64,000 nucleotides of DNA from Alphaproteobacteria bacterium (GCA_964291215.2 OZ219791.1:64001-128000), one strand, 5' to 3'; shown: positions 8,738 to 64,000, numbered from the stretch's first letter. Notes: generated from the sequence alone by a model not told the origin. Numbers and translations: made by a program.

Positions 8738-11700
8738 GTAACTGCTCACCCCCCTGGTTCCGGCTTGATGTCGGGGTAGAGCAACGAACGGGTTTTCGTG
8801 GAGATTTGACACTGCATGCCGATTCGCTTAGTGGTGGTCATCGAGAACGACGGGGACCGCCAGTGGGCTACTTTGGATCGAAGGCGACGAGTGGGCTGTG
8901 CCAGCTGCTTCCGGGGCTCCGGCCCCCGCATGATCTGTATGTGAAAACGCATCTCGGAAGCGGCGCGCTGATGAAGCGCAAGGCCGGGTGATGGCGACGG
9001 GCGGCGCGCGAGGAGTTCGAAGCGGCCAAGACCGCGGCGCTGCCGGCAAGGTGGCGGAAGAGGCCGTCATCCGCGTCTTCGTCATCCTGCTCGACATCCT
9101 CATCGTCGTCCTTCTGGAGAAGACCACGCACGAGCCGGAACTCCGGTCTGCCGCCGTCACAGACGGACAAGAGCGTGCCGGGAGCAAGGGCCCGAAGCCG
9201 AACCGGCAGATGGGCGACAACCTGCGCAAGATCATCGTCGAGGAGACGGTCGCGGCCTGCGACGCCTGCGGCGCCGACGGCCCCGTCGATCGGGAGCGCC
9301 GCACGACATCGTGTTCGAGGTCGTCGAGCGCCGCGCCGAGATCAAGGAATGCCCGAAGTGCAAGGCCCGGGGCCGGTTCCCCGACAACATCCCGTGCAGT
9401 ACGGCATCCAGGCCCTCGTCATCAACCTGCTGGTCGCCCAAATGCTGTCCCTGCGCCGTCGCGCTCGTGCAGGCGATATCAAGCTCTCCGAGGCCTCGGC
9501 TATGCTTTCACGATGCGTCATGGGAGGAGGCCGCCGTGGCGCACCTCCTGCAACGCCCGATGTCGACGATTTCGGATCAACAGTAAGTGGCTTCATGTCG
9601 TGGGACCCTGACGTGCAAGTTCCCGCACCGCAAGCGCGGGCAAGAGATCGGCCCGTGCTACAAGGGCGTCCTGGGCCTCGTACATGGGCCAGTGTAGCCA
9701 CCAGCGGCAGCCACCTGCTGCGCGAACTGACCTTTGTCGTCGAGTCTACCGCGCGACTGATGAAGAGCCTGCTCCCTGCCACAAGATCAACAAGAGCGCA
9801 TCCAAGACCCTGAACGACGCCGGGCGCAAGCGCTACCGCACCATCAGGGCGCCAGGGAACTGCCCGACATCCCGACGAAAGGAAAACGTGGACGCAAGTC
9901 CGACGCGCACAACCTGCACGAACGTCTCGTGAAACACGAAAACCTGCGCTTCACAGACGACCATTGCGGTAGGGAACCGGGTTACCCCCCGCACAGAACC
10001 GGACGTGCGCTGTTCGCATCCGGCTCCTCCCCTGACGACAAGGCGCTGGTTTGGCCACGGATGCTGGCTCAGTGGGCAGCGGCGAGGGTGTCTATGTCCC
10101 CGGTGACGTCCTTTTGGGAGCGTCGCCGAAGGGCACGCAGCCGTTTGCATTGGTGTATGAACCCCTGCAGGGATTGACTGCTTCCCGGGACGGCGTAGTA
10201 GCAGCCGTTGATGACTCACCACTTGGCCGTTTCGTGCCGGTTGTCGTGCCATTGCATGCGCAAGGCCCCCTTGATCCGCCGCAGGGTGCCCGTTTGCGAG
10301 ACGGTTTGCGACCGACCCTGAACCTGCCTTTCCTCGTCTGTTCGCAGAAGTGCGTCATGCCGAGGAAGTCGAACGTCTTGCCCTGCTTCCGGCGGTTCGC
10401 TCTGGCAAACCGACCGAACTCGATGATTGTCCGGGTGCAGTTCAAGTGGGCCAGCCTCTCCCCAAGGTCCCGGAGAAAGCGCTGCGCATCGCCCAGATGC
10501 TGAAAGCCGCACACGAAGTCGTCCGCATAATGATCGTGTCGCCTCCAGCCATCCGCTTGCGCCAGTGGTTCTGGAACCAGTCGCACGTAGTGCAGGTAAA
10601 CGTTCGCGAGGCAGGGCGATACAATCGCCCCCTGCGGTGTTCCCTTGCCCGTATCCGACCAGTCGGTCCCTTCCATGACGCCGGCGTTTAGCCACTTGAT
10701 GATCAGACCCCCCGATCCGTTTCCCGAGCATCGCAATCAGGTGGTCGCGGTCGAGATTGTCGAAGAACCCGCGGGCGTCAACGATCCAGTTGACCTTCCG
10801 CCGTTCCACCGTGACGGCGTCGAGCGCGTGATGCGCCCCGGCCGGAAACCGTAACTAAACCCGAGGAACTCCGTTTCGTAGAGCGGCACCAGAATCACAC
10901 TGCCCGCTGAAGAATCTTGTCCGAGGCAAGCGGTCGTTGCCCTCCATCCTCCTTGGGTATGTAAACCCTGGAGGCGCCCGGTACGCACCCCTGTGCACAC
11001 GGGCGTGCAGGCAGTTCCACACCCTCCGCATACGCTTGCCACACAACGCCCCGCCGCCGCGTCCTTCCTCAAGGAATGGAACGCATCGTGCAGAGCGTCG
11101 ACCGTCACGTGGTGGAGTAAAGACGCTCTTCCGGGTTCCTCTTCGCTACCTGCGTTCAGCCGCCTGTGACCCCCGCTTCTGCGCGCGGCGCGGGCCAACC
11201 GCATTGCCCTTCCCTCCAGCAACTCCGCAGGCTCCGAAGAACCCTTGTTCGCCGCCTTCAACGGTACTATGGCCGGATCTGACTTCTCGTTCATCATCGG
11301 TTTATGGAATAGTTCCTTTCCTCTGCGGCCCCTCCACGACAGAGGGGCAAGACCTCCCAGGTCCCTGCTTCGGCCATGGTTCTCGGACCCCGCGGAGCCC
11401 CCCTCACCAACGCGGCTCGCGGGGTGTTGCCCACTTGGACGACCTCGGCACTCCGGTTTCAAAGCATCTCGTGGCTCAATAGCCCGGCCTGCCGCTCCCC
11501 AACGCTTCGCCTGACGCCTCACGACGCATGGTTCACGGAGAAAGTGGTGGTTAGCCTCTCTTCCTGCCGGGACTTGCACCCGGCAACATTCCACCAGTTA
11601 GCCTGGCGCACCCAACGTCAGCTTCACCAACAATGCCGGAGAACAGAAGATCAGGATGGCAAAGGTCAAGGTGTCCGGATGCTTCCGCTCCACGCAAAAG

Positions 11701-11851
11701 CATGGTGCCGGGGCTCAAGCTACCTCACCTCCATGGCCGCACTCGGCTACAATCATCACGTCGCAACTCAGATCGCCCTCGACGGAAAAGCCGCAGACAT
11801 CATCAACGAGCACTACGACCAATCAGAACCCAACTAGGGGTGAGTAGATAC
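8738..11851 (+). mobile_element. IS66-family element copy 1 (degenerate), carrying a group II intron
   Basis: IRs GTAACTGCTCACCCC / GTATCTACTCACCCC, 8-bp TSD AGTGGAGC (8730-8737, 11852-11859); fragments GSHLLRELTFVVE, FTNNAGEQKIRMAKVK. Confidence 0.92.
9963..11611 (-). mobile_element. ltrA: Group II intron with degenerate RT/maturase (copy 1)
   Basis: 5' GTGCGCCAGG, 3' CCCTACCGCAAT, DV-like stem; fragments GTPQGAIVSPCLANVYLHY, YADDFVCGF, FDFLG; precise insertion in IS66 without TSD. Confidence 0.92.
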
Positions 11852-13183
11852 AGTGGAGCATCGCAAGGCAGTCCGCGTCGCTGACATCCGCGCTCATATG
11901 GTGCATGCCATACTCAGTATCTCGACTATGGCCTGTTTCTATTTCGCGCTGCGCACCCTGCCCTTGGCCACCGTCACCACGATCAATTTCACAACACCCG
12001 TTTTCGCCCTGCTTCTGGCTCGTCTGTTGTTCAACGAACGTGTGCCAAGGATCGGATGGCTGGCGATGACCATCGGTTTCACCGGAACCCTGATGGTTCT
12101 GCGCCCCAGTGCCGAGGGCATTGGCATTGACGCGCTCGTTGTCCTGGTGGGTTCAACCATCGCCGCCGCCATGAACCTGACGATCCGGCGCATGCCCGCG
12201 CGCAGCACGAATTTCGCCGTCATCTTTTATCTCAGCCTGTTCGGAGCGGTCTTCTATGCCATCGTAGGCGGCCCGACGCTGGAAACCCCGACGCATCCCG
12301 AAGCCCGGTTGTTCCTGGTCCTGGGCCTCGTCGCCCTGGGGGTGCACACCTGCATGGCCTTTGCCTATCGGTTTGCCTCTTCCATGCTGATCGGAGCACT
12401 GGACTACTTGCGTATCATCTGGGCCATCCTTCTTGGATATGTGCTTTTCGCCGAGCAACCGGATCTGATCGACCTCGTCGGGATCGTTTTGATCGTTTCA
12501 AGTGGTTGGATCGTGATGCGGACATCAAGCGCCGTGGCTCGGAAACAGCCGGTCAAGCCAGAAGGAACGCTTTGAACCGTTCCGCCGTAACACGAGCCGC
12601 CTCGGGCGTGCGGATCCCCGGCAGCACCTCGGCCTCGGCACCGGGAAGCAATGCCCGCGCGTCCTCGAAGGCAGGCCGAACCAGATCGTTCTCGGCAAAG
12701 GTGATCATGGTTGGCTGGGTGATCCCTGGCACATGGTCCGCCATCGAATAGCGGAACGCCGCGCGATAGCTTTGGTGATAGGTCTTCAACGCCTTCAGGA
12801 TTTCCACATAACGGGCATATAGAAACTCGGCATCCGGCAGGTCATGCGGCACACCCCGATCCGCCTCTTTCCGGAACCAGGGAAACCAGATGAACTGATC
12901 GCGGCAGAATTGCCAGGCCTGGAAGGCGAAGGCGCCCTGCTGATCGGGGGTCATCTCGGGCGTGTATTTCTTCAGTATCTCGTCCACATCGCCGGGTGCA
13001 TAGACCCCGAAACCATCCAGGATCAACCGCTCAACCCGGTCCGGGATTGTCAGAGCGATCTCGCAGGCGATCCGCGCGCCGGTATGGGTGCCGTAAAGGC
13101 GAAACCGATCCATACCCAACCTGTCGGCAACGCCCATGACGGCCTCGGCATAATCCTCAATCTCCGGTATCTACTCACCCCTA

Positions 13184-14304
13184 GTGTCTTGTCATTCGTC
13201 AAATGTCGGATAAAGGCGTTTGAGTTTCACGCGGGCATCGTCGGTGGTGAATTGCCAATCCACCTTGGCCTGAATGCGGTCGCCTGCCAAGCGGCAACTT
13301 CCCGGCGTAACACCTCGATGCAGTCGATGCGGCGGTTCAGGCGGATCATGACGTTGAGTTCCACCACGTTCAGCCAACTGCCGTGCTTGGGGGTGTAGAC
13401 GAACTCGAAGCGGTCCCACAGGGCCTTGGCCTCGTCCGGCGGGTAGGCCTCGTAGAGGGCGCCGGGGAGTGTTGAGATTGTCCATCACCAGGGTGATGGT
13501 GGTGGCATCCTGGTAGCGCCCGGCGATGTCGGCTAGGAACTGCGCCCAATCGATCTTGCGCTCGGTTACCTTGGTCATGCGCTTGCCGGCCAGGGGTTCC
13601 GTGAAGACGTTGCAGGTACCGCAACGTCGATACTCGTAGTCGTTACGCGCTGGCCGTCCCGGCGCCATGGCGATCGATTGCCGTGTCTCGCCGGTCGGGG
13701 CGTTTCGTCCATGCAGACCACGGGGAAGGCGGCGGGACGGCGATAGACATCGAGCACCTTCGCTGCGGCGAAGTCGGCGTTCCCTTGAGGAGGAATCACC
13801 CACCCGCTGCCATGGCTTGAGGCAGTTTTTTTTAGAACACGCCGCACCGTCTCGTGTGACACGGTGTAACCAAGCTCGACAACGCGGTCGGCCAGCAGCC
13901 GCAACGACCATTGCGCGTAACCCTCAGGCGGTTCACCACAACTCAGGGCCACGCGCCTCGAAGACGCCGTCGGCTTTTCGCATATAGGTAGGACGGCGCC
14001 GGCCACCCAATGCCGCCTCCAGCCCCTCGAAACGCTTCTTTACTCGGTCTACTTTGCGCATGCTGATGCGCAGAATCTCAGCAATGACCTTCCCGGTCAT
14101 CTGGCATTCATTGAACGCGCTCTCGTCGCAGTTAAGCAGGATCAGGGCGTTGATTACCTTTTGCGACAGGTGCGAGCCCTTGATCTCCGAAAGTTCTGCC
14201 CGTTCGTCCAGGGTCACCACGTAGCGTTTCATACTCCGACCTCCATCCCGAATGGACGGACAGTCTAGCACCAAATGTACGACATATCATTGCTGACATA
14301 ACAC
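13184..14304 (-). mobile_element. IS630-family element (type a, degenerate)
   Basis: IRs GTGTCTTGTCA / GTGTTATGTCA, TA duplication in CTAG; fragments VVCMDETP, DYEYRRCGT, ITLVMDNLNT, WQFTTDDARVKLKRLYP. Confidence 0.88.
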
Positions 14305-15829
14305 TAGTTGGGTTCTGATTGGTCGTAGTGCTCGTTGATGATGTCTGCGGCTTTTCCGTCGAGGGCGATCTGGGTGGCGACGAGTGGGTTGTAGCCGAGT
14401 GCGGCCATGGAGGTGAGGTAGCTTGAGCCCCGGCACCATGCTTTTGCGTGGAGCGGAAGCATCTGGACACCTTGACCTTTGCCATCCTGATTTTCTGTTC
14501 TCCGGCATTGTTGGTGAAGCTGACGTCAGGGTCGTCTGTGAAGCGCAGGTTTTCGTGTTTCACGAGACGTTCGTGCAGGTTGTGCGCGTCGGACTTGCGT
14601 CCACGTTTTCCTTTCGGCGGGATATCGGGCAGTTCCCTAGCGCCCTGATGGTGCGGTAGCGCTTGCGCCCGGCGTCGTTCAGGGTCTTGGATGCGCTCTT
14701 GTTGACCTTGTGGCAGACCTCGCGGAGCAGGCTCTTCATCAGTCGCGCGGTAGCCTCGACGACAAAGGTCAGTTCGCGCAGCAGGTGGCTGCCGCACAGC
14801 TGGTGGCTACACTGGCCCATGTACGAGGCCCAGGACGCCCTTGTAGCACGGGCCGATCTCTTGCCTCCCGGCCGCGCTTGCGGTGCGGGAACTTGCACGT
14901 CAGGGTCCCACGACATGGAGCCACTTGCTGTTGATCCGAAATCGTCGACATCGGGCGTTGCAGGAGGTGCGCCACGGCGGCCTCCTCCCATGACGCATCG
15001 TGAAAGCATAGCCGAGGCCTCGGAGAGCTTGATGCCGGAGATCGCCTGCACGAACGCGACGGCGCAGGGACAGCATTTGGGCGACCAGCAGGGACGAGGG
15101 CCTGAATGCCGTACTGCACGGGATGTTGTCGGGGAACCGGCCCCGGGCCTTGCACTTCGGGCATTCCTTGATCTCGGCGCGGCGCTCGACGACCTCGAAC
15201 ACAATGTCGTGCGGCGCTCCCGATCGACGGGGCCGTCGATGTCGGCGCCGCAGGCGTCGCAGGCCGCGACCGTCTCCTCGACGATGGCAGGTTGTCGCCC
15301 ATCTGCCGGTTCGGCTTCGGGCCCTTGCTCCCGGCACGCTCTTGTCCGTCTGTGACGGCGGCAGACCGGAGTTCCGGCTCGTGCGTGGTCTTCTCCAGAA
15401 GGACGACGATGATGATGTCGAGCAGGATGACGAGGACGCGGATCACGGCCTCTTTCGGCACCTTGCCGGCAGCGCCGCGGTCCGGGTCTTGGCCGCTTCG
15501 AACTCCTCGCGCGCCGCCCGTCGCCATCACCCGGCCTCGACGGTCATGATCGTCGCGAGCATCGCTTGGCGCTCGCCCGGCGGCATCTTCCGGTACTCCG
15601 CCTTGCGCTTCATCAGCACGCCGCTTCCGAGATGCGTTTCCACATACAGATCATGCGGGGGCTGGAGCCCCGGAAGCAGCTGGCACAGCCCGCTCGTCGC
15701 CTTCGATCCAAAGTAGCCCACTGGCGGTCCCCGTCGTTCTCGATTACCACCACTAAACGAATCGGCCTGCAGTGTCAAATCTCCACGAAAACCCGTTCAT
15801 TACTCTACCCCGACATCAAGCCGGAACTA

Positions 15830-16663
15830 GGTTGTGGACTCAAATAATTGGTTTGCGATTCTGCGGAGCAAGAATCGGCTGGCAGCCAGTTGCACGGCGG
15901 AGAGGAAGTTCCTTGTCATAACGGGTGGCGACCCGTCGGAACTCCTTGATCTTGCCGAAGAACCGCTCGACCAGGTTGCGCATCCTGTAGATCTCGCGGT
16001 CAAGCGGCCGGGGCGATGTCCGGTTGGATTTTGACGGAATGACCGCGGTTGCTCCTGCCATCTCGATCAGATGGCGTCGGTGTCGTAGGCCTTGTCGCCG
16101 ACCACCGTCTCGCTCGAGGTCGGCGAGAAGCGCCTGCGCGCAGTCGGCCGCCTGGCCCGGGGTCAGGAACACGGTTTTCACCCTCTCGTTCTCGCCAAGA
16201 TGGACCTTCGTCGTTCGTCCGCCACGGCTCACTGCGAAGGCTCGTCGTCCCGGGACGCCCCGGCTTGTGAACGCGCACCGACGAGGAGTCCACCATGCGC
16301 AGGTGAACCGAGCGAGCCATCGTCGCTCCCGTCATCATCGCTCGTAAGCCTTTGAAGCTTCTCCATGCCCAGGTGCCGTTCTTGCTCCACCGGTTGAAGC
16401 GGTTGAAGCAGACGGACCGTACCGCTCCGGCAGATCGCGCCACGGCGTACCGGTGCGAAGCACGAAGAATATCCCGTTCATGACCCTCCGGTCATGCACC
16501 CGCTCCGGGCCCTGGTGCTTGTCGGGAAGCACCGAGCGGAGAACCTCCCATTCCGCGTCGCTCATGTCGTGTCGGTCGCCGCTCATCCTTCACTCTCCTT
16601 GTGGATCGCTTTTGACAAGACATGGCAAATCGTGCAAAAATGTCAACATTTGGGTACACACCC
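15830..16663 (-). mobile_element. IS5-family element (IS427/IS1031-like, degenerate)
   Basis: IRs GGTTGTGGACTCAAA / GGGTGTGTACCCAAA, CTAG at both ends; GIFFVLRTGTPWRDLPERYG, RNLVERFFGKIKEFRRVATRYDK. Confidence 0.88.
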
Positions 16664-16899
16664 TAGGGGGTGAGCAGTTACAATCTCCGGTTGATCCCCA
16701 ACAGGCGGCATGGAATCGCCATTGCCCATCGTGTCGGGCGCGATGACATGGAAGGACTTGGCCATCTCGGAAATCAGCGGTTCAAGCTGTCGGGACGACC
16801 CCGGCGAGGCATGAAGCAACAGAAGCGGCGGCGCATCTTTCGTGCCCGTATATCGGTAATAGATCTGCCCTCGCTCGAAATCGACGAAGCCGCGCCGGA

Positions 16900-27681: not shown

Positions 27682-29422
27682 CTAGGCCGAAGTTCCAGCA
27701 CCGATCAGACGTATCATTATGAATGTATTGACGTTTGAAAAAATCGGGTGTGTCGCTACTGAGAACGCTGCAGGCGTACGCCGAGGTAGTCCAGGGCCTT
27801 TTTCTGGAGCGGCGTGGGCCGCGTGGTGACCTGGAAGGGTTTGGCGCCCGCAAGGCGGGGCGCCACGGTGTTGCGGGTGGCGAGATCATCGAGGAGAGTG
27901 CGGAAGCTGTGCCACCTCCGGGCGTCCTCTTCGTTGCCGCCTTGGCCCGGGCGCTCGCCGAGACCTCTGCCGGCGCCACGACGGACGGCCGCCTTCGGCA
28001 TCCTCGTCGTCGAACAGCATGGGCTTCAGTCGCATGTGCCATTCGATGTAGTAGGCGAGCATGCACAGGAAGACGTGGGCCCGGGGCGGTGGTAGACGGG
28101 ACGGACCTTCAGATCCACGGTCTTCAGGCTGCGGAAGGCCCGTTCCACCGAACTCAACCGCTTGTAGGCGCGCACCGCGCCGTCGAGTGCGCTCTGCGGC
28201 AGGCGGATCACGTAGAGGACTCGGCGGCGATGGCAGCCTCATCGCGCCCATAGGTGAAGACACCGTCGTCGTCGATGGACCACGTGAAGTGCTTCGCCAT
28301 CTTGTACTTGCCGATGACCTTCCTCTCCCCGATCTTCCCGGCGCTTGTCGCGCCGTGTCGCTGCTGCGATCGGTTCAAGCCTCGGTGGCCTCGAGCAGTT
28401 CCTGGCGCTTTCGGTCCTCGGCCAGCAGGGGGTTGCGGCAGAGGCGTTCGCCGGGATACGCATCACTGGTGATCTCCACCAGGTCGCTCTCGTCGAAGAG
28501 CGACATCGTCACCCGCCTCCACCAGGGAACGGATGCCCCTCAAGGCGCTGATCCAGGCCCGCAGGCTTCACCTCCTCGCGCGCCTCGGTCCCCCGGTCTC
28601 CCACCACCTTCGCCAGGGAGAAGCGCTCCTGCAGCGTGGTGATCTGTGATGCCACCGTCCCGGGGTCCGCCGTGTTGCCGGGGAACACTTCCACCGACAG
28701 CCGTCCCGATCGCACAGAAGGCCGGCTGCAGCTTGCCCTTCTTGCCATCCCGGGAATGACCCCGTTTGGCCAGGGGACACCCCTCCATCCACACTGAAGT
28801 CAGGAGCACCAGGCAGCCCTCTTCGAGGCGCCGCCAGGGACCGCTCGATCCTCTCCTGACGCTCCAGGAGCTAGGCGCCGTAGAGGACCTCCTCGTCCAT
28901 CTCCGCATCGAGGCCAGGGTGGAGACCGCTGTGGCCAGCCCCCTGGCCAGCTTCGAAGCGGGCTCGAGGATGCGTGCCACGATCATGGCCAGGACCTGAT
29001 CGCGCGAGGGCTTCGGGTCGATCAGCCTGTCCAGCTTCTTCAGGGTTCCCAGCACCGCGGCGACATGGGGAAGGGAGCGGACGATGTCGAAGGCATCGTC
29101 ACCGAGGGGTTCGTTCTTCAAGAGGCGCCGCAGGGTCTCAACCTTCTCCATGGGCCAGGAGGAGAGATTGGTGCGCTTCTTGACCTTGCCGTTCTCGCGC
29201 CATCCTTCGCGCAGGAGGACGGCGGGGGGGGGGGGGGGGAGTTGCGGTTGGGGACGATGTCTACATACATGGCAACGTATATGGGGCATAACGCCCATTT
29301 TTTCAATTTAAAAATTCGGCTTTACATGGTAATACTCACGCGCCATCATCGCACTATCCTGCCAACACAATCAAGCAGTTGTCGTGATTCTGCTGCTGAA
29401 ATCAGCGGGAACTTCGGACTAG
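27682..29422 (-). mobile_element. IS1634-family element (degenerate)
   Basis: Ends CTAGGCCGAAGTTCC / GGAACTTCGGACTAG; MYVDIVPNRNSPP..AVLLREGWRENGKV, GHSRDGK, VERAFRSLKTVDLKVRPVYH, HVFLCMLAYY. Confidence 0.85.
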
Positions 29423-40102: not shown

Positions 40103-40226
40103 CCGCGGCTGCCGCAAGACAGGCTTCGAATGGACGGTTCAGCAAGGCGCCGGGCCGGGCGTTCCTTTTCACGCTGTCCTGGGTCAGGCCGAGGGCAGCG
40201 CCGCAAACCGGAAGGAGCTAACCGAG

Positions 40227-40777: not shown

Positions 40778-40778
40778 C

Positions 40779-44218: not shown

Positions 44219-44444
44219 ATGAGATTTGCTCTCGTCGACGGCCATCGTACCAATCCCCAACCCCGGGGGGGGGGGGGGGATATGCTGCTATTGCGGGCGC
44301 CGGATGATACCGAAGTGCGGTCGATATGTGCGTTGGCACTGGGCACATGAACGACATAGTAGCTGTGATCCTTGGCAAGAGGGTGAAACTGACTGGCATA
44401 TAGCATGGAAGGATTATTTTCCGGAAGGATTTCAAGAAATCTTG
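44219..44444 (+). pseudogene. CoiA-like zinc-finger/nuclease protein, frameshifted at G15 tract and truncated by IS30
   Basis: MRFALVDG...[G15]...ICCYCG..MIPKCG...WHWAH....CDPW.EGETDWH..WK. Confidence 0.7.
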
Positions 44445-45651
44445 CCCCCGTTCCATAGTGAAGTGCAACACATGATGGGCTGTGGCCATGTGTTTTTAGA
44501 CGCATGATGTTGCGGAGCGGTAGCGGCGAGAGTTGCTGTACAAGATGAAGGGAGCTTGTTCATGTCCAAAGGCTACCGTCACCTACGAAGAGCGATGCCA
44601 GATTGAGGCAGAAAAGCGGTCTTTCACAAGGTGCGATTGCTCGGCAGCTAGGCCGATCAACAATTTTCCGGGAGATCAAGCGCAACACCGGGGGACGGGG
44701 TCACCGTCACAAGCAGGCGCAAAGGATGGCAGAAACGCGCCGCAGGACAGACTCGTCTGTTTCCTGGCGGTTGACGCCTCGGGTTGAAGCTCAGAAAAAG
44801 CTGCGGGAGGGCCCCGAGCAGCGGCCGTTTTCGACTGGAGGGCCGTGGGTCGGCAACGGATCCATGATCGCCGAAGATCGGAGAGCTGGGGGCGTCTTGT
44901 GGAAGAAGCTTCGGCGGCGCGGCAAGAAGCCGAACTGGAAGGGCGGATGCCATTCCGGCCGGGTGGACATTTCCGAGCGCCCTGCGGAGGCAAAGGAACG
45001 GATCGGCGACTGGGAACCATCATCGGCAAAGCTCACAGTGGAGCTGTCGTGTCGCTGGTTGATCGTGCCACGAAATACACCTTGCCGGGTGGACAGAAAG
45101 ACACGGTCGGTTCGGTCATGATCCGCCTGCTCGGCTCTGGTGCGCTATTGGTCCACACAATCACAACGGCAAGGAGTTCGCAGACCACAGGCGTGTCGCA
45201 CTTGACGCAGATTTCTTCTTCGCCTTTCCATTCCTGGGAGCGCGGCTTGAATGAGCACACCAACGGCCTGGTGCGGGAGTACTTCCCGAAGGGCACGGAC
45301 TTTCGCGCGATATGCAACGAAGATGTTCAGAAGGTACAGGATCGGATCAACACTCGGAAAGTCCCGGGATCGCTGACGGAGGTAATCTTGAAGTGAAACC
45401 GCGCTGACCATCTGCGCCATGTTCCGAAGCCGTAACGTGCAGCAGGGTCCATGCCGCGCGACGGCGGAATAGTGGCTTGAAGTCGACAAAGGCGTTGCAT
45501 AAGCTCGGTGTTGAAGGAACTGAAGCTGTTCCCAGGCGGAATCGAGAGGGGCAGAGGGGGAAATTTGCGCAACATCCGGCCCTCATCTCCGTTCGGGCTA
45601 CGCCCTCACTGCGATGCGGGCCGGATGTTGCACTTCAGACTGGAAGTGGGG
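44445..45651 (+). mobile_element. IS30-family element copy 1 (degenerate, no TSD)
   Basis: 26-bp IRs CCCCCGTTCCATAGTGAAGTGCAACA / CCCCACTTCCAGTCTGAAGTGCAACA; SWERGLNEHTNGLVREYFPKGTDF. Confidence 0.9.
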
Positions 45652-45983
45652 TCCATGTAGAACACCGCCAGAACGGGGCTTAGCAGATGCATGCAAAGCG
45701 GCATGTCCGACTTTTCCGGCTTGATCCGGTGACGCATGTCGAAAACCGCGATCTGTCCCGGTTTGACGCTACAGCCGCAGCCCTCGTTCCGGATCACCTC
45801 GGCCACGATCTCGTAGTCGTCCAGCCAGGTCACGCCCAGCCGCCGACGCCCCGACAAGAGGTTCTTCACCTCGGGGGAAAGCCGGTTGAAATCCTCGTCA
45901 CTCGGATACGGCGCCCGCAATTCCTCCAATCCGTCACTATCAAGATAGTCGTGTGGGTAATGACGCGTGGCCTTGTCAGACAT
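45652..45983 (-). pseudogene. Cys-containing hypothetical protein truncated by IS30
   Basis: MSDKATRHYP...CGCSVKPG...PLCMHLL; RBS GAGG; runs into IS30 end. Confidence 0.5.
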
Positions 45984-47707: not shown

Positions 47708-48766
47708 GTCATCTGGAACTGAAGTAAGTATAATTGTATGATGGCGGTCGGAGTGTGAACACGGAGGTCATGGCGATGCCACGGGACGGCCCTTGGCGGT
47801 GCTGGTCTTGAGTAATCGGTCGTATCTGGAGGCGCAGGTTCGCCGCCACCGTGTGGCGCGCTCGCTGTCGGCCGCATAATCCTGCGTTGCGCGGACGGGC
47901 TTGGCAACAAGGCGGTGGCCGCAGAGATCGGCGTGCACACCGTCGGCAAGTGGCGCAAGCGCTTTGTCAAGGACCGCATCGAGGGGCTGAGCCGGGACGC
48001 CCGCGGAGCATCGCGGACGAGAAGGTGGCGGAAGTGATCGAGCGCACGCTCACCTCGACGCCCGCGACCCACTGGTCGCTGCGCTCGATGGCGAAGGAGG
48101 CGGGGCTGACGTCGATCTGGCGCATCTGGGGCGCCTTCGGCCTGCACCGGGCCGAGACGTTCAAGCTCTCTCGTGATCCGCACTTCGTCGACAAGGTCCG
48201 CGACATCCTCTCGCCGCTGGATCGCGCGCTGGGCGTCGACGAAAAGAGCTAGGCCCGCACCCAGCCGGTCCTGCTGCCCGGCATCCCTGAGCGGCGCACC
48301 CATGACTACAAGCGCAACGGAACGACCTCGCTGTTCGCCGCGTCGCCACCGGCGCGGTCATCGGCAACAGACGCCACCGGGCCAAGGAGTTCCTCGACTT
48401 CCTCAAGGTGATCGACCGCAATGTTCCGGACGGCCTCGACATCCACATCGTCATGGACAACTACGCCACCCACAAGACCGCCGCGGTCAAAGCCTAGCTG
48501 GCTCGGCGGCCGCACTGGCACGTCCACTTCACGCCGACATCCGCCTCGTGCAGGTCGAGCGCTGGTTCGCCGAACTGACCCGCAAGCAGTTGCAGCGTGG
48601 CCGCTCGACCCTGCAACTCGAAACCGACATCCGGGCCTTCAACCCACAACGAAAATCCCAAGCCCTTCAAGTGGACAAAGTCCGCTGACGAAATCCTCGC
48701 CGCCGTCAAGCGCTTCTGTCTCCGCGTCGAACAAAACTTATGCCACGAACTTTAGATTCAGGTGAT
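47708..48766 (+). mobile_element. IS630-family element (type b, degenerate)
   Basis: IRs GTCATCTGGAACTGAAG / ATCACCTGAATCTAAAG, TA flanks; THWSLRSMA, VDEKS, MDNYATHK, QVERWFAELT. Confidence 0.88.
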
Positions 48767-48789
48767 TAGATTGGTAGATGACTTGTGTG

Positions 48790-49124: not shown

Positions 49125-50311
49125 CCCCCGTTCCATAGTGAAGTGTAACACATGATGGGCTGTGGCCATGTGTTTTTAGACGCATGATGTTGCGGAGCGG
49201 TAGCGGCGAGAGTTGCTGTACAAGATGAAGGGAGCTTGTTCATGTCCAAAGGCTACCGTCACCTACGAAGAGCGATGCCAGATTGAGGCGTTACAGAAAA
49301 GCGGTCTTTCACAAGGTGCGATTGCTCGGCAGCTGGGCCGATCAACAATTTTCCGGGAGATCAAGCGCAACACCGGGGGACGGGGTTACCGTCACAAGCA
49401 GGCGCAAAGAATGGCAGAAACGCGCCGCAGGGCAGCCTCGTCTGTTTCCTGGCGGTTGACGCCTCGGGCTGAAGCTCAGAAAAAGCTGCGGGAGGGCCCC
49501 GAGCAGCGGCCGTTTTCGACTGGAAGGCCGTGAACGGATCCATGATCGCATTCATGAAGATCGGAGAGCCGGGGGCGTCTTGTGGAAGAAGCTTCGGCGG
49601 CGCGGCAAGAAGCCGAACTGGAAGGGCGGATGCCATTCTGGCCGGGTGGACATTTCCGAGCGCCCTGCGGAGGCAAAGGAACGGGTCGGCGACTGGGAGC
49701 CATCATCGGCAAAGCTCACAGTGGAGCTGTCGTGTCGCTCGTGCCACGAAATACACCTTGCTGGGTGGACAGAAAGACACGGTCGGTATGATCCGCCTGC
49801 TCGGCTCTGGTGCGCTATTGGTCCACACAATCACAACGGCAAGGAGTTCGCAGACCACAGGCGTGTCGCACTTGACGCAGATTTCTTCTTCGCCTTTCCA
49901 TTCTTGGGAGCGCGGCTTGAATGAGCACACCAACGGCCTGGTGCGGGAGTACTTCCCGAAGGGCACGGACTTTCGCGCGACATGCAACGAAGATGTTCAG
50001 AAGGTGCGGCTCAACACTCGGAAAGTCCCGGGATCGCCGACGGAGGTAATCTTGAAGTGAAACCGCCCTGACCATCTGCGTTCCAAAGCCGCAACGTGCA
50101 GCAGGGTCCATGCCGCGCGACGGCGGAATAGTGGCTTGAAGCCGACAAAGGCGTTGCATAAGCTCGATGTTGAAGGAACTGAAGCTGTTCCCAGGCGGAA
50201 TCGAGAGGGGCAGAGGGGAAAAATTTGTGCAACACCCGGCCCTCATCTCCGTTCGGGCTACGCCCTCACTGCGATGAGGGCCGGGTGTTGCATTTCAGAC
50301 TGGAAGTGGGG
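49125..50311 (+). mobile_element. IS30-family element copy 2 (degenerate)
   Basis: Same IRs as copy 1; TGA duplicated on both sides. Confidence 0.9.
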
Positions 50312-50360
50312 TGATATAAAACCTCAGACTATAGGTTCTGTATTATGAGGTTTTGTATCA
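50312..50360. promoter_or_regulatory. AbiEi-type operator: 23-bp inverted repeats with 3-bp spacer
   Basis: TGATATAAAACCTCAGACTATAG-GTT-CTGTATTATGAGGTTTTGTATCA immediately before abiEi ATG. Confidence 0.75.
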
Positions 50361-50978: not shown

Positions 50979-51451
50979 AGAGATAAAGAACATTGGGGCG
51001 TCAGTGCGCGCCCGCCTTCTGAACCTTTCCAAGGCGAGCGGCCAGAGTTTCGACTTGGTGCTGACGCGCTTCGCGCTTGAGCGTCTTCTATTCCGGCTTA
51101 GCCAATCTCGCTACGCCGATCGCTTCGTGCTCAAGGGCGCGATGTTGCTGATGAGTTGGCTCGACGAGCCGCATCGCGGCACGCGCGACCTCGACTTGCT
51201 GGCGTTCGGGGATCCCAACGCCGACGCCATGCTCGCGACGTTTCGGGAAATCCTGGCACAAGATGCGGGCGACGGCGTGGTATTCGATGCGGATGCGCTG
51301 CGCGTCGATCGTATCCGCGAGGAACTCGAATATGGCGGCCTTCGACTCCGCACGACTGCGTCGATCAGCGGCGCACGGATCAACCTGATGATCGACATCG
51401 GATTCGGCGACGCGTTGGAGCCTGGCTCCGAGTTGATCGACTATCCGGTCA
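50971..51451 (+). pseudogene. abiEii: AbiEii nucleotidyltransferase toxin, truncated by ISAs1
   Basis: LERLLFRL, FVLKGA, RGTRDLDL, IDIGFGD; ends at IS IR. Confidence 0.85.
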
Positions 51452-53151
51452 CAAGGTGATCCCATGCTTGTTGATGTGATGTGATCGGAGTCCTGATCGC
51501 GGCGCGGGGCGCGATTGGTCGGCGTATCCGGGGCGAGCGAGAGGCCTTGGTTGCCGGGCTCGAAAGCTTGCGGTTTCTGTCGGGGAGAGAGACGCGGTCA
51601 GCCTGGTCTTGTGATTGCGTGCAGGACCTGCTTGCGCTTGTCGGCATGGTGGGAAGCTGTTGAAGGGTTTGGGCAGCTTGTTGCGGATGATGAGTGCGAG
51701 GGTGATCGCGTTGTTTGCGGGCGCGTTCGGAGCATGGAGTCGTCTTCGCGGAAGGTGGCATCGCGGACATGATGATGGCTCTCGACCCCCCGGTGTCCGC
51801 GATTCCATGCGAGCAACTGTTGCGGCGAGGCGCGTTCGGCCGAGGTCATGGCGTGTTCCGTATTTCCTGAATTCGACGCGCCGGGTGACGCGGAAGATCT
51901 GCCTGACATAGTTGATCATCTTCGCTAGCGGGGTGAAGATGGTGCGCTGGCGGCCATGCGCGGGCTTTTCGCTGTAGCGCTGGCGGTCTTCCAGTTGATG
52001 CTCTCTCGAAGGTGCGTTGCCCTTGACCATCAGTCCGCGCGACGGGTCTCGATGATCAGCCTCGCGGGTGGTGTGGAGCGCGTCGAGGGTGAGCAGACGG
52101 CCGTCGCGGCGTGGACGGCAGCGATCTCCCCGTCGTGACAGTTGAGGATCGAATGCCGGCCAGCGAGACCGTCTCGTAATGATCCTCGCCGGTGCGCTTG
52201 CCGTCGACCGCGTTGCCGACCTGCGGCTGCGCGCCGCATCCTCGATCCATCCCGGGTCGGTGTTCTGCAGCACCCGGTGCACGGTCGATTTGGAGACCGG
52301 CTTGTCCCTGTTCTTCCATGCTGCTCCAGCTCCTTCTGCGTCGTAGTGCGCCGCCGCAACCGTGCCGGTTCGCAAGCCAGCAAAATCACGCACAGCACCG
52401 AGGCGATGCGGTGCCCCTGCGCACGCCGGAAAGCGCCGCTGATAAATCGAGCGCAACTCCTGCGCCGACCAGTGGCGCCCGCAACTCCCACGCCACAGGA
52501 AGCGGCGAACGATCCCGCAGCCGACATCGCGACGCAGCGGAAACACGTAAAGATCCTTCGCCTCCCCGGTCGGTATAGCGCCCGCTGGCGCGCGCATAGC
52601 TCCTGCCAACGCACTCCCAGTTCGCCGCCTTGTACATGGTGCCGCTGAACTTCGTCGGCAAGACAAACGACTCCGCAACAAGCAACGGATGGCCGTACGC
52701 AGCCTCCCAGTCGCCGCCGCACCATCCGCGACAACGCAAACGAGGCAAGGCCCGGAAACGACCACCAGGAACAACAAACCTCGTGTTGTTCCCGGCAACC
52801 GCCTGAACTGTTCCTCGCGGCGCCAGCCAATCCAACGGGTGCGCAGCTGAGGGCGCCCGTCTGCCAGCCCGCAGCACCAATCCACCGCCCGCGCCAGGTA
52901 AACACGCAGACCTCGACCGGCAAACTGCTTGAAACCAAGATACGGTCAACAACACGGTTCCAGCGACATCAGGCCGCGCAAGGCGCACAACCACATCCCG
53001 GAGCGCAAAACCCTCCAGAGTCGTCTCAAAAAAATCCGCTGCCCCCACGACAACGGATACTATGTCGCTTCACAAAAAGCCAGCGAAAATGCGAATCATC
53101 CTGAACAAGCAAAACCGACCCTTCCAACAAACCTAGCGTGGGATCGCCGTG
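51452..53151 (-). mobile_element. ISAs1-family element with DUF4338-like N-terminal region (degenerate, no TSD)
   Basis: IRs CAAGGTGATCCCATGCT / CACGGCGATCCCACGCT; NNTRF, YGHPLLVAESFV, GTMYKAANW; AVDGK, LTLDALHT, HHVRDATFRED. Confidence 0.78.
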
Positions 53152-58547: not shown

Positions 58548-59814
58548 CGTTCAGGTTTCCGTGCGTTGAGGTTAATCGAAGAAAAGAGTGCTTTGATGTA
58601 ACTGCTCACCCCCTGGTTTCGGCTTGATGTCGGGGTAGAGCAACGAACGGGTTTTCGTGGAGATTTGACACTGCAGGCCGATTCGTTTAGTGGTGGTAAT
58701 CGAGAACGACGGAGACCGCCAGTGGGCTACTTTGGATCGAAGGCGACGAGCGGGCTGTGCCAGCTGCTTCCGGGGCTCCAGCCCCCGCATGATCTGTATG
58801 TGGAAACGCATCTCGGAGGCGGCGCGCTGATGAAGCGCAAGGCCGGGTGATGGCGACGGGCGGCGCGCGAGGAGTTCGAAGCGGCCAAGGCGCTGCCGGC
58901 AAGGTGGCGGAAGAGGCCGTGATCCGCGTCCTCGTCATCCTGCTCGACATCATCATCGTCGTCCTTCTGGAGAAGACCACGCACGAGCCGGAACTCCGGT
59001 CTGCCGCCGTCACAGACGGACAAGAGCGTGCCGGGAGCAACGGCCCGAAGCCGAACCGGCAGATGGGCGACAACCTGCCATCGTCGAGGAGACGGTCGCG
59101 GCCTGCGACGCCTGCGGCGCCGACGGCCCCGTCGATCGGGAGCGCCGCACGACATCGTGTTCGAGGTCGTCGAGCGCCGAGATCAAGGAATGCCCGAAGT
59201 GCAAGGCCCGGGGCCGGTTCCCCGACAACATCCCGTGCAGTACGGCATCGGCATCCAGGCCCTCGTTATCAACCTGCTGGTCGCCCAGATGCTGTCCCTG
59301 CGCCGTGCCGTCGCGCTCGTGCAGGCGATATCAAGCTCTCCGAGGCCTCGGCTATGCTTTCACGATGCGTCATGGGAGGAGGCCGCCGTGGCGCACCTCC
59401 TGCAACGCCCGATGTCGACGATTTCGGATCAACAGCAAGTGGCTTCATGTCGTGGGACCCTGACGTGCAAGTTCCCGCACCGCAAGCGCGGGCAAGAGAT
59501 CGGCCCGTGCTACAAGGGCGTCCTGGGCCTCGTACATGGGCCAGTGTAGCCACCAGCGGCAGCCACCTGCTGCGCAAACTGACCTTTGTCGTCGAGGCTA
59601 CCGCGCGACTGATGAAGAGCCTGCTCCCTGCCACAAGGTCAACAAGAGCGCATCCAAAACCCTGAACGACGCCGGGCGCAAGCGCTACCGCACCATCAGG
59701 GCGCCAGGGAACTGCCCGACATCCCGCCGCCGCCGAAAGGAAAACGCATAGCAAACGCGCACAACCTGCACGAACGTCTCGTGAAACACGAAAACCTGCG
59801 CTTCATAGACAACC

Positions 59815-61437
59815 ATCGCGGTAGGGAACCGGGTTACCCCCCGCACAGAACCGGACGTGCGCTGTTCGCTCCTCCCCTGACGACAAGGCGCTGGTTTGGC
59901 CACGGGTGGCGGATGCTGGCTCAGTGGGCAGCGGCGAGGGTGTCTATGTCCCCGGTGAAGTCCTTTTGGGAGCGTCGCCGAAGGGCACGCAGCTGTTTGC
60001 ATTGGTGTATGAACTTCTGCAGGCTGCTTCCTGGAACGGCGTAGTAGCAGCCGTTGATAACTCACCACTTGGCCGTTTCGTGCCGGTTATCGTGCCACCG
60101 CCTGCGCAAGGCCTCCTTGATCCGCCGCAGGGTGCCCGTTTGCGACCGACCCTGAACCTGCCTTTCCTCGTCTGTTCGCAGAAGTGCGTCATGCCGAGGA
60201 AGTCGAACGTCTTGTCCACGCTTCCGGTGGTTCGCTCTGGCAAACCGACCGAACTCGATGATTTTCCGGGTGCAGTTCAAGTGGGCCAGTCTCTCCCCAA
60301 GGTCTCGGAGAAAGCGCCGCGCGTCGCTCAGATGCTGAAAGCCGCACACGAAGTCGTCCGCATAGCGGACAATGATCGTGTCGCCTCCAGCCATCCGCTT
60401 GCGCCAATGGTTCTGGAACCAGTCGCACGTAGTGCAGGTAGACGTTCGCAAGGCATGGCGCCGCCCCTTGCGGTGTTCCCTTGCCAGTCGGTCCCTTCCA
60501 TGACGCCGGCGTCACTTGATGATCAGACCCCCCGATCCGTTTCCCGAGCATCGCGACTAGATGGTCGCGGTCGAGATTGTCGAAGAACCCACGGATGTCG
60601 GCGTCAACGATCCAGTTGACCTTCCGCCGTTCCACCGTGACGGCATCGAGCGCATGATGCGTCCCGCGCCCCGGCCGGAAGCCGTAACTAAACCCGAGGA
60701 ACTCCGTCTCGCGGCACCAGAATCACACCGCCCGCTGAAGAATCTTGTCCGAGGCAAGCGGTCGTTGCCCTCCATCCTCCTTGGGTATGTAAACCCGCCG
60801 AGATGGAGGCGCCCGGTACGCACCCCTGTGCACACGGGCGTGCAGCAGTTCCACACCCTCCGCGTACGCTTGCCACACAACGCCCCGCCGCCGCGTCCTT
60901 CCTCAAGGAGTGGAACGCATCGTGCAGAACATCGACCGTCACGTGGTGGAGTAAAGACGCTCTTCCGGGTTCCTCTTCGCTACCTGCGTTCAGCCGCCTG
61001 TGACCCCCGCTTCTGCGCGCGGCGCGGGCCAACCGCATTGCCCTTGGCCTTCCCTCCAACAGCTCCGCAGGCTCCGAAGAACCCTTGTTCGCCGCCTTCA
61101 GCGGTACTATGGCCGAATCTGACTTCTCGTTCATCATCGGTTTACGGATTAGTTCCTTTCCTCTGCGGCCCCTCCACGACAGAGGGGCAAGACCTCCCAG
61201 GTCCCTGCTTCGGCGCGTGCCATGGTTCTCGGACCCCGCGGAGCCCCCCTCACCAACGCGGCTCGTTGCCTTCGGCCACGACCTCGGCACTCCGGTTTCA
61301 AAGCATCTCGTGGCTCAATAGCCTGGCCTGCCGCTCCCCAACGCTTCGCCTCACGACGCATGGTTCACGGAGAAAGTGGTGGTTAGCCTCTCTCGGGACT
61401 TGCACCCGGCCACATTCCACCAGTTTGCCTGGCGCAC
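59815..61437 (-). mobile_element. ltrA: Group II intron with degenerate RT (copy A)
   Basis: 5' GTGCGCCAGG, 3' CCCTACCGCGAT; IVDADIRGFFD, IIVRYADD; same IS66 site as copy 1. Confidence 0.92.
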
Positions 61438-62932
61438 ATCGCGGTAGGGAACCGGGTTACCCCGGTCCCCCCCGCACAGAACCGGACGTGCGCTGTTCGC
61501 TCCTCCCCTGACGACAAGGCGCTGGTTTGGCCACGGATGCTGGCTCAGTGGGCAGCGGTGAGGGTGCCTACGTCCCCGGTGAAGTCCTTTTGGGAGCGTC
61601 GCCGAAGGGCACGCAGCTGTTTGCATTGGTGTATGAACTTCTGCAGGCTGCTTCCTGGAACGGCGTAGTAGCAGCCGTTGATAACTCACCACTTGGCCGT
61701 TTCGTGCCGGTTATCGTGCCACCGCCTGCGCAAGGCCTCCTTGATCCGCCGCAGGGTGCCCGTTTGCGAGATGGTTTGCGACCGACCCTGAACCTGCCTT
61801 TCCTCGTCTGTTCGCAGAAGTGCGCCATGCCGAGGAAGTCGAACGTCTCCGGTTTGCCCTGCTTCCGGCGGTTTGCTCTGGCAAACCGACCGAACTCGAT
61901 GATTTTCCGGGTGCAGTTCAAGTGGGCCAGTCTCTCCCCAAGGTCTCGGAGAAAGCGCCGCGCGTCGCCCAGATGCTGAAAGCCGCACACGAAGTCATCC
62001 GCATAATGATCGTGTCGCCTCCAGCCATCCGCTTGCGCCAGTGGTTCTGGAACCAGTCGCACGTAGTGCAGGTAGACGTTCGCAAGGCATGGCGCCGCCC
62101 CTTGCGGTGTTCCCTTGCCAGTCGGTCCCTTCCATGACGCCGGCGTCACTTGATGATCAGACCCCCCGATCCGTTTCCCGAGCATCGCGACCAGATGGTC
62201 GCGGTCGAGATTGTCGAAGGGGCGTCAACGATCCAGTTGACCTTCCGCCGTTCCACCGTGACGGCATCGAGCGCATGATGCGCCCCGGCCGGAAGCCGTA
62301 ACTAAACCCGAGGAACTCCGTCTCGCGGCACCAGAATCACACCGCCCGCTGAAGAATCTTGTCCGAGGCAAGCGGTCGTTGCCCTCCATCCTCCTTGGGT
62401 ATGTAAACCCCGGAGGCGCCCGCCCCTGTGCACACGGGCGTGCAGGCAGTTCCACACCCTCCGCATACGCTTGCCACACAACGCCCCGCCGCCGCGTCCT
62501 TCCTCAAGGAATGGAACGCATCGTGCAGAGCGTCGACCGTCACGTGGTGGAGTAAAGACGCTCTTCCGGGTTCCTCTTCGCTACCTGCGTTCAGCCGCCT
62601 GTGACCCCCGCTTCTGCGCGCGGCGCGGGCCAACCGCATTGCCCTTGGCCTTCCCTCCAACAGCTCCGCAGGCTCCGAAGAACCCTTGTTCGCCGCCTTC
62701 AACGGTACTATGGCCGAATCTGACTTCTCGTTCATCATCGGTTTACGGATTAGTTCCTTTCCTCTGCGGCCCCTCCACGACAGAGGGGCAATTGGAAGAC
62801 CTCCCAGGTCCCTGCTTCGGCCATGGTTCTCGGACCCCGCGGAGCCCCCGTTCGCCTCACCAACGCGGCTCGTTGCCTTCGGCCACGACCTCGGCACTCC
62901 GGTTTCAAAGCATCTCGTGGCTCAATAGCCTG

Positions 62933-63133
62933 GTCGGGTAGGCCACTGGCGCGCGCATCCTTAGGCGAAGGCTTTATCCGTCACCGCTCTTTCGATTGCG
63001 GGCGGGTTCGCAGAATCGCCATAGACCACGTTTCCAGCAGCCCCCCTAAAATTCCGTACGTCCGGTTTTCCCGGTTCAAGCATCAGGCACCCACTTGGAG
63101 TTCGGTGCGAAGCCTTCCCACGCCATAGTCAAG
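62933..63133 (-). ncRNA. ORF-less group II intron, 3' part (interrupted by another copy of itself)
   Basis: Matches 30960-31088 plus 32686-32757; same insertion site in host intron. Confidence 0.8.
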
Positions 63134-64000
63134 GTCGGGTAGGCCACTGGCGCGCGCATCCGTAGGCAGAGGCTTTGTCCGTCACCGCTCTTTCGATTGC
63201 GGGCGGGGTCGCAGTTCTCCCATAGACCACGTTTCCAGCAGCCCCCCTAAAATTCCGTACGTCCGGTTTTCCCGGTTCAAGCATCAGGCACCCACTTGGA
63301 GTTCGGTGCGGAGCCTTCCGCCGGACACGCCATGGTCAAGGCTGACCCAACCGTACCCACGGCATCCCCTTGCGTTTGCTCCGTCCTTCGACCTCGCGGC
63401 CTTTGTCGGTCGGGGCCAGTTTCTGAGCACTGGCGTTGACCTACCGCGGAACAGGCCACCTGAGCCCTGAGGTCCTCGCTCAGGACGGGTTGTGTTGTCC
63501 CGCCCGTCATCGCTTAATCGACCTCATCCGCCAGTCAGGAGGACTCCGCGTCCTTTCCCGTTTCCCGGTTATGGACGCGGTCCTTGACATGCAAGGGTCA
63601 CTTCATCCTGTCTGTCCTCCTCACCTTCCGATCTTTCACTGCTGTACTGTCCCGGATTGCCGCCGTCTCTACCACCGGGGAACCCGATGCGTGCTCTCCA
63701 GTTCTTCCGCATCGACGCTGGCCATCGGGCAGTCAGCAGGCCCTTGGCATTCCCGTTTACCCCACTAATCAGCTTCGTGTGGGATGGTTATTTCGGGGCT
63801 TCATCCAATCGTTCGCTTTCGCTGCGGCCCTCCGGTTTGCTCGCCGCCCTGGCTGACCGAACCGGCTGGACACTGTGTTCCAGCCAGCCCACAACGGCTT
63901 TCTACGTCCCAGCTCGCTGATCCAGGGTCACCCCTGAACCAATGCTACGGCGCCAAACTGGAAATTGCGCCGGCGGGACTCGCACCCGCAAGTACAGCAT
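63134..64000 (-). ncRNA. ORF-less group II intron, innermost copy (5' end just beyond window)
   Basis: Starts again at GTCGGGTAG and is colinear with the copy at 30960-33377. Confidence 0.8.

Follow-up and report, generated by a model that had tools for sequence, protein, structure and literature searches.

Why should the mobile elements of a bacterial genome be broken every few dozen bases by small deletions? The question is raised by a 64,000-nt stretch of DNA from an alphaproteobacterium (GCA_964291215.2 OZ219791.1:64001-128000; hereafter the window), which is C2:64001-128000 of a 6.15-Mb, 64% GC genome (G000) assembled in 2 contigs. Some 37% of this genome matches itself elsewhere, 27 to 29% of it has at least five matches, and its single-copy 16S gene, like the high score of an alpha-specific addB model, agrees with the alphaproteobacterial assignment. 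The original prediction held that unrelated insertion sequences (ISs) and introns in the window are selectively riddled with 5- to 7-nt deletions, by a process akin to the repeat-induced point mutation (RIP) of fungi. The six blocks that it quoted, as kept in one copy and lost from another, are all present where it placed them (that at 14717-14723 as a minus-strand reading), and alignments show the lesions to be clean block gaps between copies, at 721 sites in 27 families. Its names for the elements stood for IS66, IS630, IS5 and IS30, of which the window holds fragments, and for IS1634, by a long open reading frame (ORF) of the family, whereas ISAs1 in the window and an "ORF-less intron" went unconfirmed.

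When we aligned the window to the whole genome (high-scoring segment pairs of at least 300 nt and at least 85%), 12,323 of 15,606 gaps (79%) were 5 to 7 nt long. These tallies are pairwise and hence redundant, with 1,263, 406, 208 and 44 gaps of 1, 2, 3 and 4 nt, 3,123, 5,138 and 4,062 gaps of 5, 6 and 7 nt, and 175 of 8 nt; collapsed to the 721 non-redundant sites, the blocks of 5, 6 and 7 nt number 166, 350 and 205. The spectrum shows a second bump at 11 to 14 nt, made up mostly of two neighboring events, as 89 of 114 such events have one or both halves also found alone. Deletion density is 8 to 15 per kb in most high-copy families and 1 to 9 per kb in lower-copy ones, and the first frequent site in IS66 lies at 243 nt. 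Reference elements with all gaps filled are still without complete reading frames, which suggests that further deletions have become fixed and that our counts are lower bounds.

For comparison we used other genomes, represented by samples of 160 to 1,035 kb. Outgroup comparison showed that the events are losses in G000 and not insertions: in repeats, G000 lacks 304, 677 and 202 blocks of 5, 6 and 7 nt that are present in G004, which itself lacks 7, 6 and 0, and it lacks 21, 121 and 124 relative to G001, a genome 90 to 93% identical to it, which lacks 0, 0 and 0. Judged from the sequence at the block ends, the breakpoints appear enzymatic. The preferred trinucleotide in G000, [AG]TC (purine-T-C), occurs at a frequency of 0.24 versus a background of 0.11, which is a weaker anchor than that of G002, a different species of the same genus; in both genomes the anchor sits at one end of the block, on either strand, and a two-ended preference that we had considered was dropped, the sharper anchors being one-ended. 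A weak preference for a pyrimidine at +2 is seen at both block ends, and microhomology is modestly raised in G000 (none in 184 of 589 events, versus 303 expected). No hairpin loops, periodic spacing or k-mer motifs were found within 18 nt of the deletion sites, nor was there any asymmetry with respect to the coding strand or any positive correlation between the deletion load of a copy and its private single-nucleotide polymorphisms (SNPs). A classifier predicted sites from local sequence with an area under the curve of only 0.74 to 0.77.

A pattern of this kind might be an artefact of assembly or polishing in repeats, given a 2-contig assembly so rich in them. We therefore turned to Logan contigs from three runs of one study that contain the region; they carry the deletion alleles, although among the contigs listed none spans a whole element. 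Several retained-block alleles, judged against the copy in the window, are seen in contigs from the three runs, and one piece of 310 nt aligns without gaps to a riddled stretch of intron. Coverage of the intron at 29488-30960 at 99% likeness reached 24, 22 and 20 of 30 bins in the three runs, with 29618-29785 uncovered in all of them. Contig pieces with 0 or 1 difference combine deletion junctions common to two intron subfamilies with SNPs of subfamily B as little as 3 to 6 nt away; this mosaic is thus not the product of a polisher that alters only indels. Furthermore, size mode and anchor differ in G002, and 79 IS1634 loci from other assemblies, in a search biased toward intact copies, show 1, 9 and 0 gaps of 5, 6 and 7 nt in 178 kb. 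Long transposase ORFs persist, and what they lack is mostly in-frame 6-nt blocks, in part an effect of selecting long ORFs. An artefact is scarcely credible on this evidence.

Selectivity for repeated and mobile DNA was borne out by single-copy genes that are themselves broken: 77 such genes contain 15 deletions of 5 to 7 nt in 93.5 kb, or 0.16 per kb (only the per-kb figure is used, as several frames in the set were mis-called and the changes stem from either lineage), which makes such deletions ~70-fold sparser than in the elements, and losses of 1 nt are commoner in these genes (23). It is these controls that uphold the conclusion that neutral decay is insufficient. Neither of the two outcomes that were to refute the original prediction, a consensus artefact in repeats and single-copy pseudogenes with an equal deletion density and size mode, was encountered. 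The original argument, that host genes interrupted by the ISs had been dead for at least as long as the ISs and yet kept clean frames, did not survive: the insertion site of the composite element at 8730-11851 is empty both in strain X3 and in G001, so the death of the interrupted gene is recent and little can be learned from its clean flanks. Relative to G001, G000 shows no 5- to 7-nt loss in ~700 nt left of 8735, in 11852-13180 or in ~1 kb right of 16670.

The load also climbs with copy number and depends on local homology, as had been predicted. In pairs of non-coding repeats, 5- to 7-nt gaps per 100 mismatches rise from 4.0 in two-copy families to 20.4 in those of more than 50 copies, with a dip at 4 to 5 copies. 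Multicopy host families (lipoproteins, Rpn and RTX-like proteins, 4 to 15% diverged) have no clear peak at 5 to 7 nt, with the exception of one repetitive family, in which gaps of 6 nt keep the frame.

Single-copy DNA is not wholly free of such deletions, a point that the original prediction missed. A weak 5- to 7-nt excess is also present outside repeats in G000: compared with 735 kb of G001, single-copy DNA of G000 lacks 25, 65 and 24 blocks of 5, 6 and 7 nt and G001 lacks 7, 9 and 3. Such blocks are lost at 0.10 per kb within genes and at 0.53 per kb between them, or ~0.01 per lineage substitution, and the unambiguous events (n = 38) are without the breakpoint and anchor profile. In 398 intact single-copy genes compared with G001, in-frame losses of 6 nt in G000 (21) outnumber those of 3 nt (10) and 9 nt (6). 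The single-copy intergenic stretch C1:2218693-2219959 has clean losses of 7, 7, 5 and 12 nt within 250 nt relative to G001; the other of the two loci with clustered gaps was rejected, as it proved to be a larger replacement.

This excess, including the intergenic cluster, speaks for the view that there is no dedicated system but only a genome-wide bias toward deletions of at least 5 nt that escape mismatch repair (MMR), combined with long neutral survival of dead elements mobilized in trans and ordinary gene conversion. The rare new alleles, slow to arise and without an anchor, fit that explanation as well, as do the existence of long conversion tracts and the recency of insertions. However, unique DNA has ~0.01 events per substitution and an intron of two copies ~0.8, and the single-copy events do not share the anchor profile. 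Ordinary slippage would be expected to leave microhomology and a size distribution that falls off, whereas microhomology is absent from 184 of 589 events in G000, as given above, and from 64 of 120 in G002. The copies of the group II intron, described below, in which SNPs are not co-converted and sisters differ by 25 to 28 events per 1 to 5 substitutions, disfavor it strongly, and we consider an origin without a dedicated system quite improbable.

Far from being independent hits on each copy, as originally proposed, most lesions belong to a set shared among copies: private deletions at new sites number only 2 to 3 per family, versus 170 to 377 private SNPs. In the intron, the four-gamete test fails for 0.33 to 0.38 of deletion pairs versus 0.09 of SNP pairs, with no decay over distance, and parsimony requires 6.1 steps per deletion site versus 1.7 per SNP. 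Two subfamilies of the intron are 9.4% apart, and 38 of 57 sites are deleted in both while still variable; the allele of the other subfamily was found within 15 nt in only 5 of 493 cases among deleted copies. The nearest diagnostic SNP lies at a median of 3 nt from sites that are not shared but 14.5 nt from those that are (28 versus 112 sites; p 6e-8). SNPs shared by at least five intron copies are synonymous in 59 cases and non-synonymous in 36 (private ones, 37 and 41), and this excess suggests that the subfamilies split while the reverse transcriptase (RT) was functional, making it unlikely that the shared frameshifts are ancestral.

The plainest example is a near-intact intron at C2:3402931, which lacks no block relative to its six sisters; these differ from it by 1, 2, 3, 3, 5 and 22 SNPs, and each is without 25 to 28 blocks. 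Their events number 37, of which 35 occur in identical form outside the group and 16 are present in all six. Recurrence is exact, without jitter, in that alleles of different length overlap the major sites no more often than chance predicts (50 of 264, 0.19), and the distribution of site frequencies is shifted to high values (8 of 245 sites lie below 10%). From recurrence that is exact and homology-dependent, without a strong motif, we infer copying from a deleted template.

Copying needs a first deletion, and the smallest families show that the origin is itself dense. Of the only two copies of a second intron, ~2.4% diverged in SNPs, one is without gaps and the other lacks 30 blocks; other families of two or three copies are likewise lopsided, and their SNPs look neutral. 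The sample of G002 contains a three-copy family in which one member has 32 deletions and the other two, over the stretch that they have in common, are intact and do not differ. Unless copies have been lost or reside in other cells, such families offer no deleted donor.

Among the related genomes, G002 has a version of the signature of its own: gaps of 4, 5, 6, 7 and 8 nt number 62, 423, 674, 120 and 18 in 325 kb aligned, with a mode at 5 to 6 nt, and 68 of 120 events are able to start exactly at 5'-AT, versus a background of 8.9%, with C most often next. Microhomology is low in G002. The signature is absent from the sample of G004, where 14, 12 and 8 gaps of 5, 6 and 7 nt were found in 101 kb. 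Three further genomes are weak negatives: G030 has no 5- to 7-nt gaps in 495 kb, of very young repeats (2.3 mismatches per kb), the elements of G001 are intact where comparable, over only 6 kb of self-alignment, and G003 has no repeats in the 320 kb sampled.

Taken together, these results are accommodated by a process of two steps, enzyme-dependent riddling followed by loss-biased short-patch copying between homologues, whose chances we judge to be even. In the first step a putative enzyme, preferring mobile or repeated DNA, would remove 5- to 7-nt blocks, each beginning with a favored dinucleotide (purine-T for G000 and AT for G002), giving about one site per 30 to 60 bases of element. In the second, a deleted copy would serve as template, either as a short single strand annealed at the fork or through clipping of a heteroduplex loop; the outcome would be biased toward loss, and MutSL would clear patches bearing mismatches while missing loops of at least 5 nt. 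MMR is described (PMC2920528) as active on indels of 1 to 4 bp and poor on loops of at least 5 bp. The lower size limit fits such blindness, which would also account for the purging of patches that bear SNPs. New intact copies might thus be disabled in the span that a few substitutions take, and dead copies with clean ends would probably remain mobile in trans. That elements with clean ends continue to move is seen from their TSDs. Whether this amounts to a host-encoded, homology-guided defense, in which anchored excision of 5 to 7 nt from ISs and group II introns alike, with dead copies as templates for editing each new one, forms a self-updating memory of invaders with lineage-specific anchors, is a more tentative matter, to which we give somewhat less than an even chance.

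Several observations weigh against the two-step process. The sharp upper limit at 7 to 8 nt is not accounted for by it, and many two-copy non-coding pairs are free of 5- to 7-nt gaps. SNPs are homoplasic too in IS66, IS30 and IS630 (0.3 to 0.6 incompatible), so that the argument from absent co-conversion rests mainly on the intron, and in G002 the four-gamete test failed for 27 of 42 deletion pairs and for 16,163 of 33,432 SNP pairs. A two-way model, with deletions both gained and lost, outperforms an irreversible one (-1218 versus -1248 for the intron; -1476 versus -1500 for IS66), which makes a loss bias likely rather than proven. The usual suppressors of short-patch events are present in G000, where recA, recJ, xseA, recO and addB are intact, addB scoring far over the cut-off of an alpha-specific model, and the causal gene was not found in G000 by scans that covered a minor part of the proteome. 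Finally, a first step dense enough to riddle two-copy families leaves room for a single step fully determined by the site.

In such a single step, the same sites would be cut repeatedly in every copy, with no template, by a nuclease that takes its guidance from short RNA or DNA derived from the elements, or else from a code of sequence and structure. The one-ended anchor, sharp in G002, and dense riddling without a deleted donor speak for it, as does the presence of 10 to 38 sites per kb in most families regardless of copy number; once extra exposure is allowed at the tips, an irreversible model also nears the two-way model, though it is still worse. Yet the score of the median site is equalled by 17% of non-sites, no jitter is seen at sites, their frequencies are skewed high, and no store of guides was found. 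None of 111 spacers from two clustered regularly interspaced short palindromic repeat (CRISPR) arrays of G000 matched an element over the full length of the spacer, and outside the arrays the best match covers 23 of 25 nt and lies in unique DNA; 20-mers from the sites are not enriched in unique DNA; and Piwi and TnpB were unmatched. We regard a single guided step as unlikely. The CRISPR loci of G000 include cas1 twice and were judged from their genes to be of types I-G, III and II-C; the two arrays, of 96 and 17 repeats at C1:574248-581216 and C2:2068488-2069579, adjoin a long Cas1 fusion and a 1,046-amino-acid Cas9-like gene.

The deletions could also be scars of a resident transposase or selfish enzyme that makes a staggered cut of 5 to 7 bp in its target and has the overhang removed instead of duplicated. 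The weak preference for a pyrimidine at +2 at both ends resembles transposase target bending, long transposase ORFs persist, and Rpn/YhgA nucleases are more numerous in the two genomes with the signature (12 in G000 and 16 in G002, with 7 in G030, versus 4, 2 and 5 in G001, G003 and G004). On the other hand, the sharper anchor is one-ended, exact recurrence is left unexplained, and target-site duplications (TSDs), measured for families whose copies could be paired (the low-copy families were not all paired), are 8, 9 to 10, 10, 4 (CTAG) or 2 bp and never 5 to 7 bp. In G030, 7 Rpn genes coexist with young repeats free of the signature, and RpnA is reported (PMC5350276) to be a weak endonuclease with little or no sequence specificity. 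The prospect that the lesions are such scars is slim, and the Rpn expansion in both positive genomes is a lead only. The twelve Rpn/YhgA matches in G000 are without stops, three of them in tandem at C2:1147910-1151563 and nine elsewhere; the family occurs in all five genomes of the genus and in none of 14 genomes from other genera of the family.

Among the candidates for which the original prediction suggested a search, prokaryotic Argonaute (pAgo), NucS and Ku/LigD were not found in G000, and mutS and mutL are intact. More fully, G000 yielded no NucS, Piwi, Ku, ATP-dependent ligase, RecT, ERF, TnpB or Mu-type C domain; the NucS/EndoMS model PF01939 gave only partial matches in G002, and the Piwi model PF02171 matched none of 31 genomes. 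Two G002 proteins matched pAgo in PADLOC but were rejected as proteins of the Schlafen AlbA_2/HATPase_c_4 type. One such protein, at L029:14902-16776 in G002, is 61% identical to another at C2:2147893-2149629 in G000; the match of the Schlafen AlbA_2 protein in these genomes is a partial one, to the N-terminal part of the PADLOC pAgo model. RT matches inspected in G000 are intron copies. Among genes of G001 or G004 without a good match in G000, 94 of the 187 listed were scanned and no loss of DNA repair was seen, and among G002 genes shared with G000, 60 of 202 were scanned against PADLOC and none fits the phenotype. As the signature occurs with different anchors in two genomes, and the sampled elements of a 90 to 93% identical sister are intact, the gene should be findable by whole-genome comparison.

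How does the process compare with known systems? Fungal RIP makes C-to-T changes with a dinucleotide bias, alters both duplicates and depends on an effector resembling a cytosine methyltransferase. As in RIP, unrelated repeat families are disabled, the load climbs with copy number and single-copy genes are largely spared, but the likeness is not as close as first proposed, for here the host is a bacterium and the lesions are block deletions that recur at shared sites. A RIP-type context bias in C-to-T changes is absent (rates of 0.11 to 0.23 across 16 contexts), and in families of two or three copies one partner is often untouched (0 versus 30 deletions in the two-copy intron; 0, 0 and 32 in the G002 family), although intact copies may be recent arrivals. 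C-to-T changes do predominate, without context bias, among differences between G000 repeat copies, at 429 of 697 SNPs in IS66.

The closest known model for the second step is SPDIR (short-patch double illegitimate recombination), or oligonucleotide mutagenesis, which likewise transfers a short patch without flanking markers, the template being inferred in our case. SPDIR is templated by intragenomic single strands, which are integrated at the replication fork, and its patches with mismatches or indels of 1 to 4 nt are MMR substrates while loops of at least 5 nt escape. However, it occurs near the detection limit (~1e-12 or lower) and yields variable microindels of 3 to ~100 bp, insertions and deletions alike, whereas the events here are of 5 to 7 nt, loss-biased and faster than substitution, with the five suppressor genes named above intact. 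SPDIR rises when RecA, exonucleases of single-stranded DNA or RecA loaders are lost. No dprA scored over the cut-off in G000, whereas it is present in G001 to G004, including G002 with its own signature, and the G001 copy that we inspected lies in a stretch missing from G000. Loss of dprA alone raises SPDIR slightly in Acinetobacter baylyi, as reported in a preprint (10.1101/2023.11.22.568220).

Nor do other known routes fit well. Like ordinary gene conversion, the process shuffles alleles among copies, and one long tract of the ordinary type, of A-type sequence, is present at ~30740-30912 in the intron at 29488-30960; conversion tracts among IS copies ordinarily carry SNPs, whereas here deletions move without neighboring ones. 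Self-targeting by pAgo or CRISPR-Cas followed by end joining could favor multicopy elements and leave small deletions, but the Piwi, Ku, ligase and spacer searches described above were negative. The IS-excision enhancer of Escherichia coli O157 is also a bacterial enzyme that acts on ISs and yields deletions; it reportedly promotes the excision of a whole IS and has microhomology-mediated end-joining activity (PMC9943667), whereas here the ends are clean, and the lesions lie inside the element, are short and in many cases show no microhomology.

We know of no bacterial repeat-directed mutator comparable to fungal RIP, and no description of this signature was found in open-licence PubMed Central papers and bioRxiv. 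If it operates as proposed, DNA transposons and retroelements alike would be killed within a few substitutions, with consequences for how bacteria survive IS explosions. The reading of pseudogene ages and of deletion bias in host-associated genomes would also change, and the process would point to a new enzyme, a natural scarless editor that makes micro-deletions.

Table 1. Element copies and an interrupted host gene in the window, with their deletion counts
Feature	Position	Strand	Remarks
IS66-family element split by group II intron	8735..11852	+	Recent insertion in EamA gene; 8-bp TSD
RT group II intron copy	9961..11611	-	31 deletions of 5-7 nt versus family union
Interrupted EamA/DMT host gene, 3' part	11853..12575	+	No 5-7-nt loss versus G001
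IS630-family copy	13181..14300	-	14 deletions of 5-7 nt
IS66-family copy	14291..15840	-	27 deletions of 5-7 nt and 6 of 8-21 nt
IS5-family copy	15832..16670	-	9 deletions of 5-7 nt
IS1634-family copy	27689..29285	.	30 deletions of 5-7 nt; long ORF of family matches NF033559 (E 1.7e-89)
Group II intron, divergent subfamily B	29488..30960	-	37 deletions of 5-7 nt; shared junctions beside B-type SNPs
IS66-family copy, lightly affected	31086..32680	+	17 deletions of 5-7 nt
IS30-family copy	44431..45660	+	11 deletions of 5-7 nt
Second IS630-family element, frame fragmented	47708..48769	+	Deletions without separate count
IS30-family copy	49125..50312	+	14 deletions of 5-7 nt
IS of 9-10-bp-TSD family (transposase family unconfirmed), adjoins truncated abiEii	51451..53151	.	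21 deletions of 5-7 nt and 9 of 8-21 nt (51852-53151)
IS66-family copy with two introns, left part	58596..59812	+	
Group II intron copy	59813..61440	-	30 deletions of 5-7 nt
Group II intron copy	61437..62933	-	31 deletions of 5-7 nt

The RT intron (9961-11611 and 59813-62933 in the window) is found repeatedly at one IS66 site and in tandem, and dead introns are therefore likely to be carried as IS66 cargo; no plasmid match was found for the IS66 copy. The window also holds a type I restriction-modification operon (34959-43778) in which hsdS and hsdR flank an intact darT-darG pair, and a 517-nt direct repeat internal to this hsdS is without any 5- to 7-nt gap. DarT ADP-ribosylates DNA at T-N-T-C, and damage by DarT was rejected as a source of the lesions: the motif occurs at 0.12 at lesions versus 0.155 in the background, and darT is also present in G001 and G030. 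A darG homologue in G002 is 65% identical to that of the window. Elsewhere in G000, DruA (DUF4338) domains are fused to ISAs1 transposases or form separate multicopy genes (C2:356544, C2:460763, C2:848938 and C2:3177652), and they occur in G002 as well. Two miniature inverted-repeat transposable elements were also seen in G000 (~46 paired copies), one of ~190 bp with ends in common with 1.7-kb elements and TSDs of 9 to 10 bp, the other of ~180 bp with TSDs of 10 bp.

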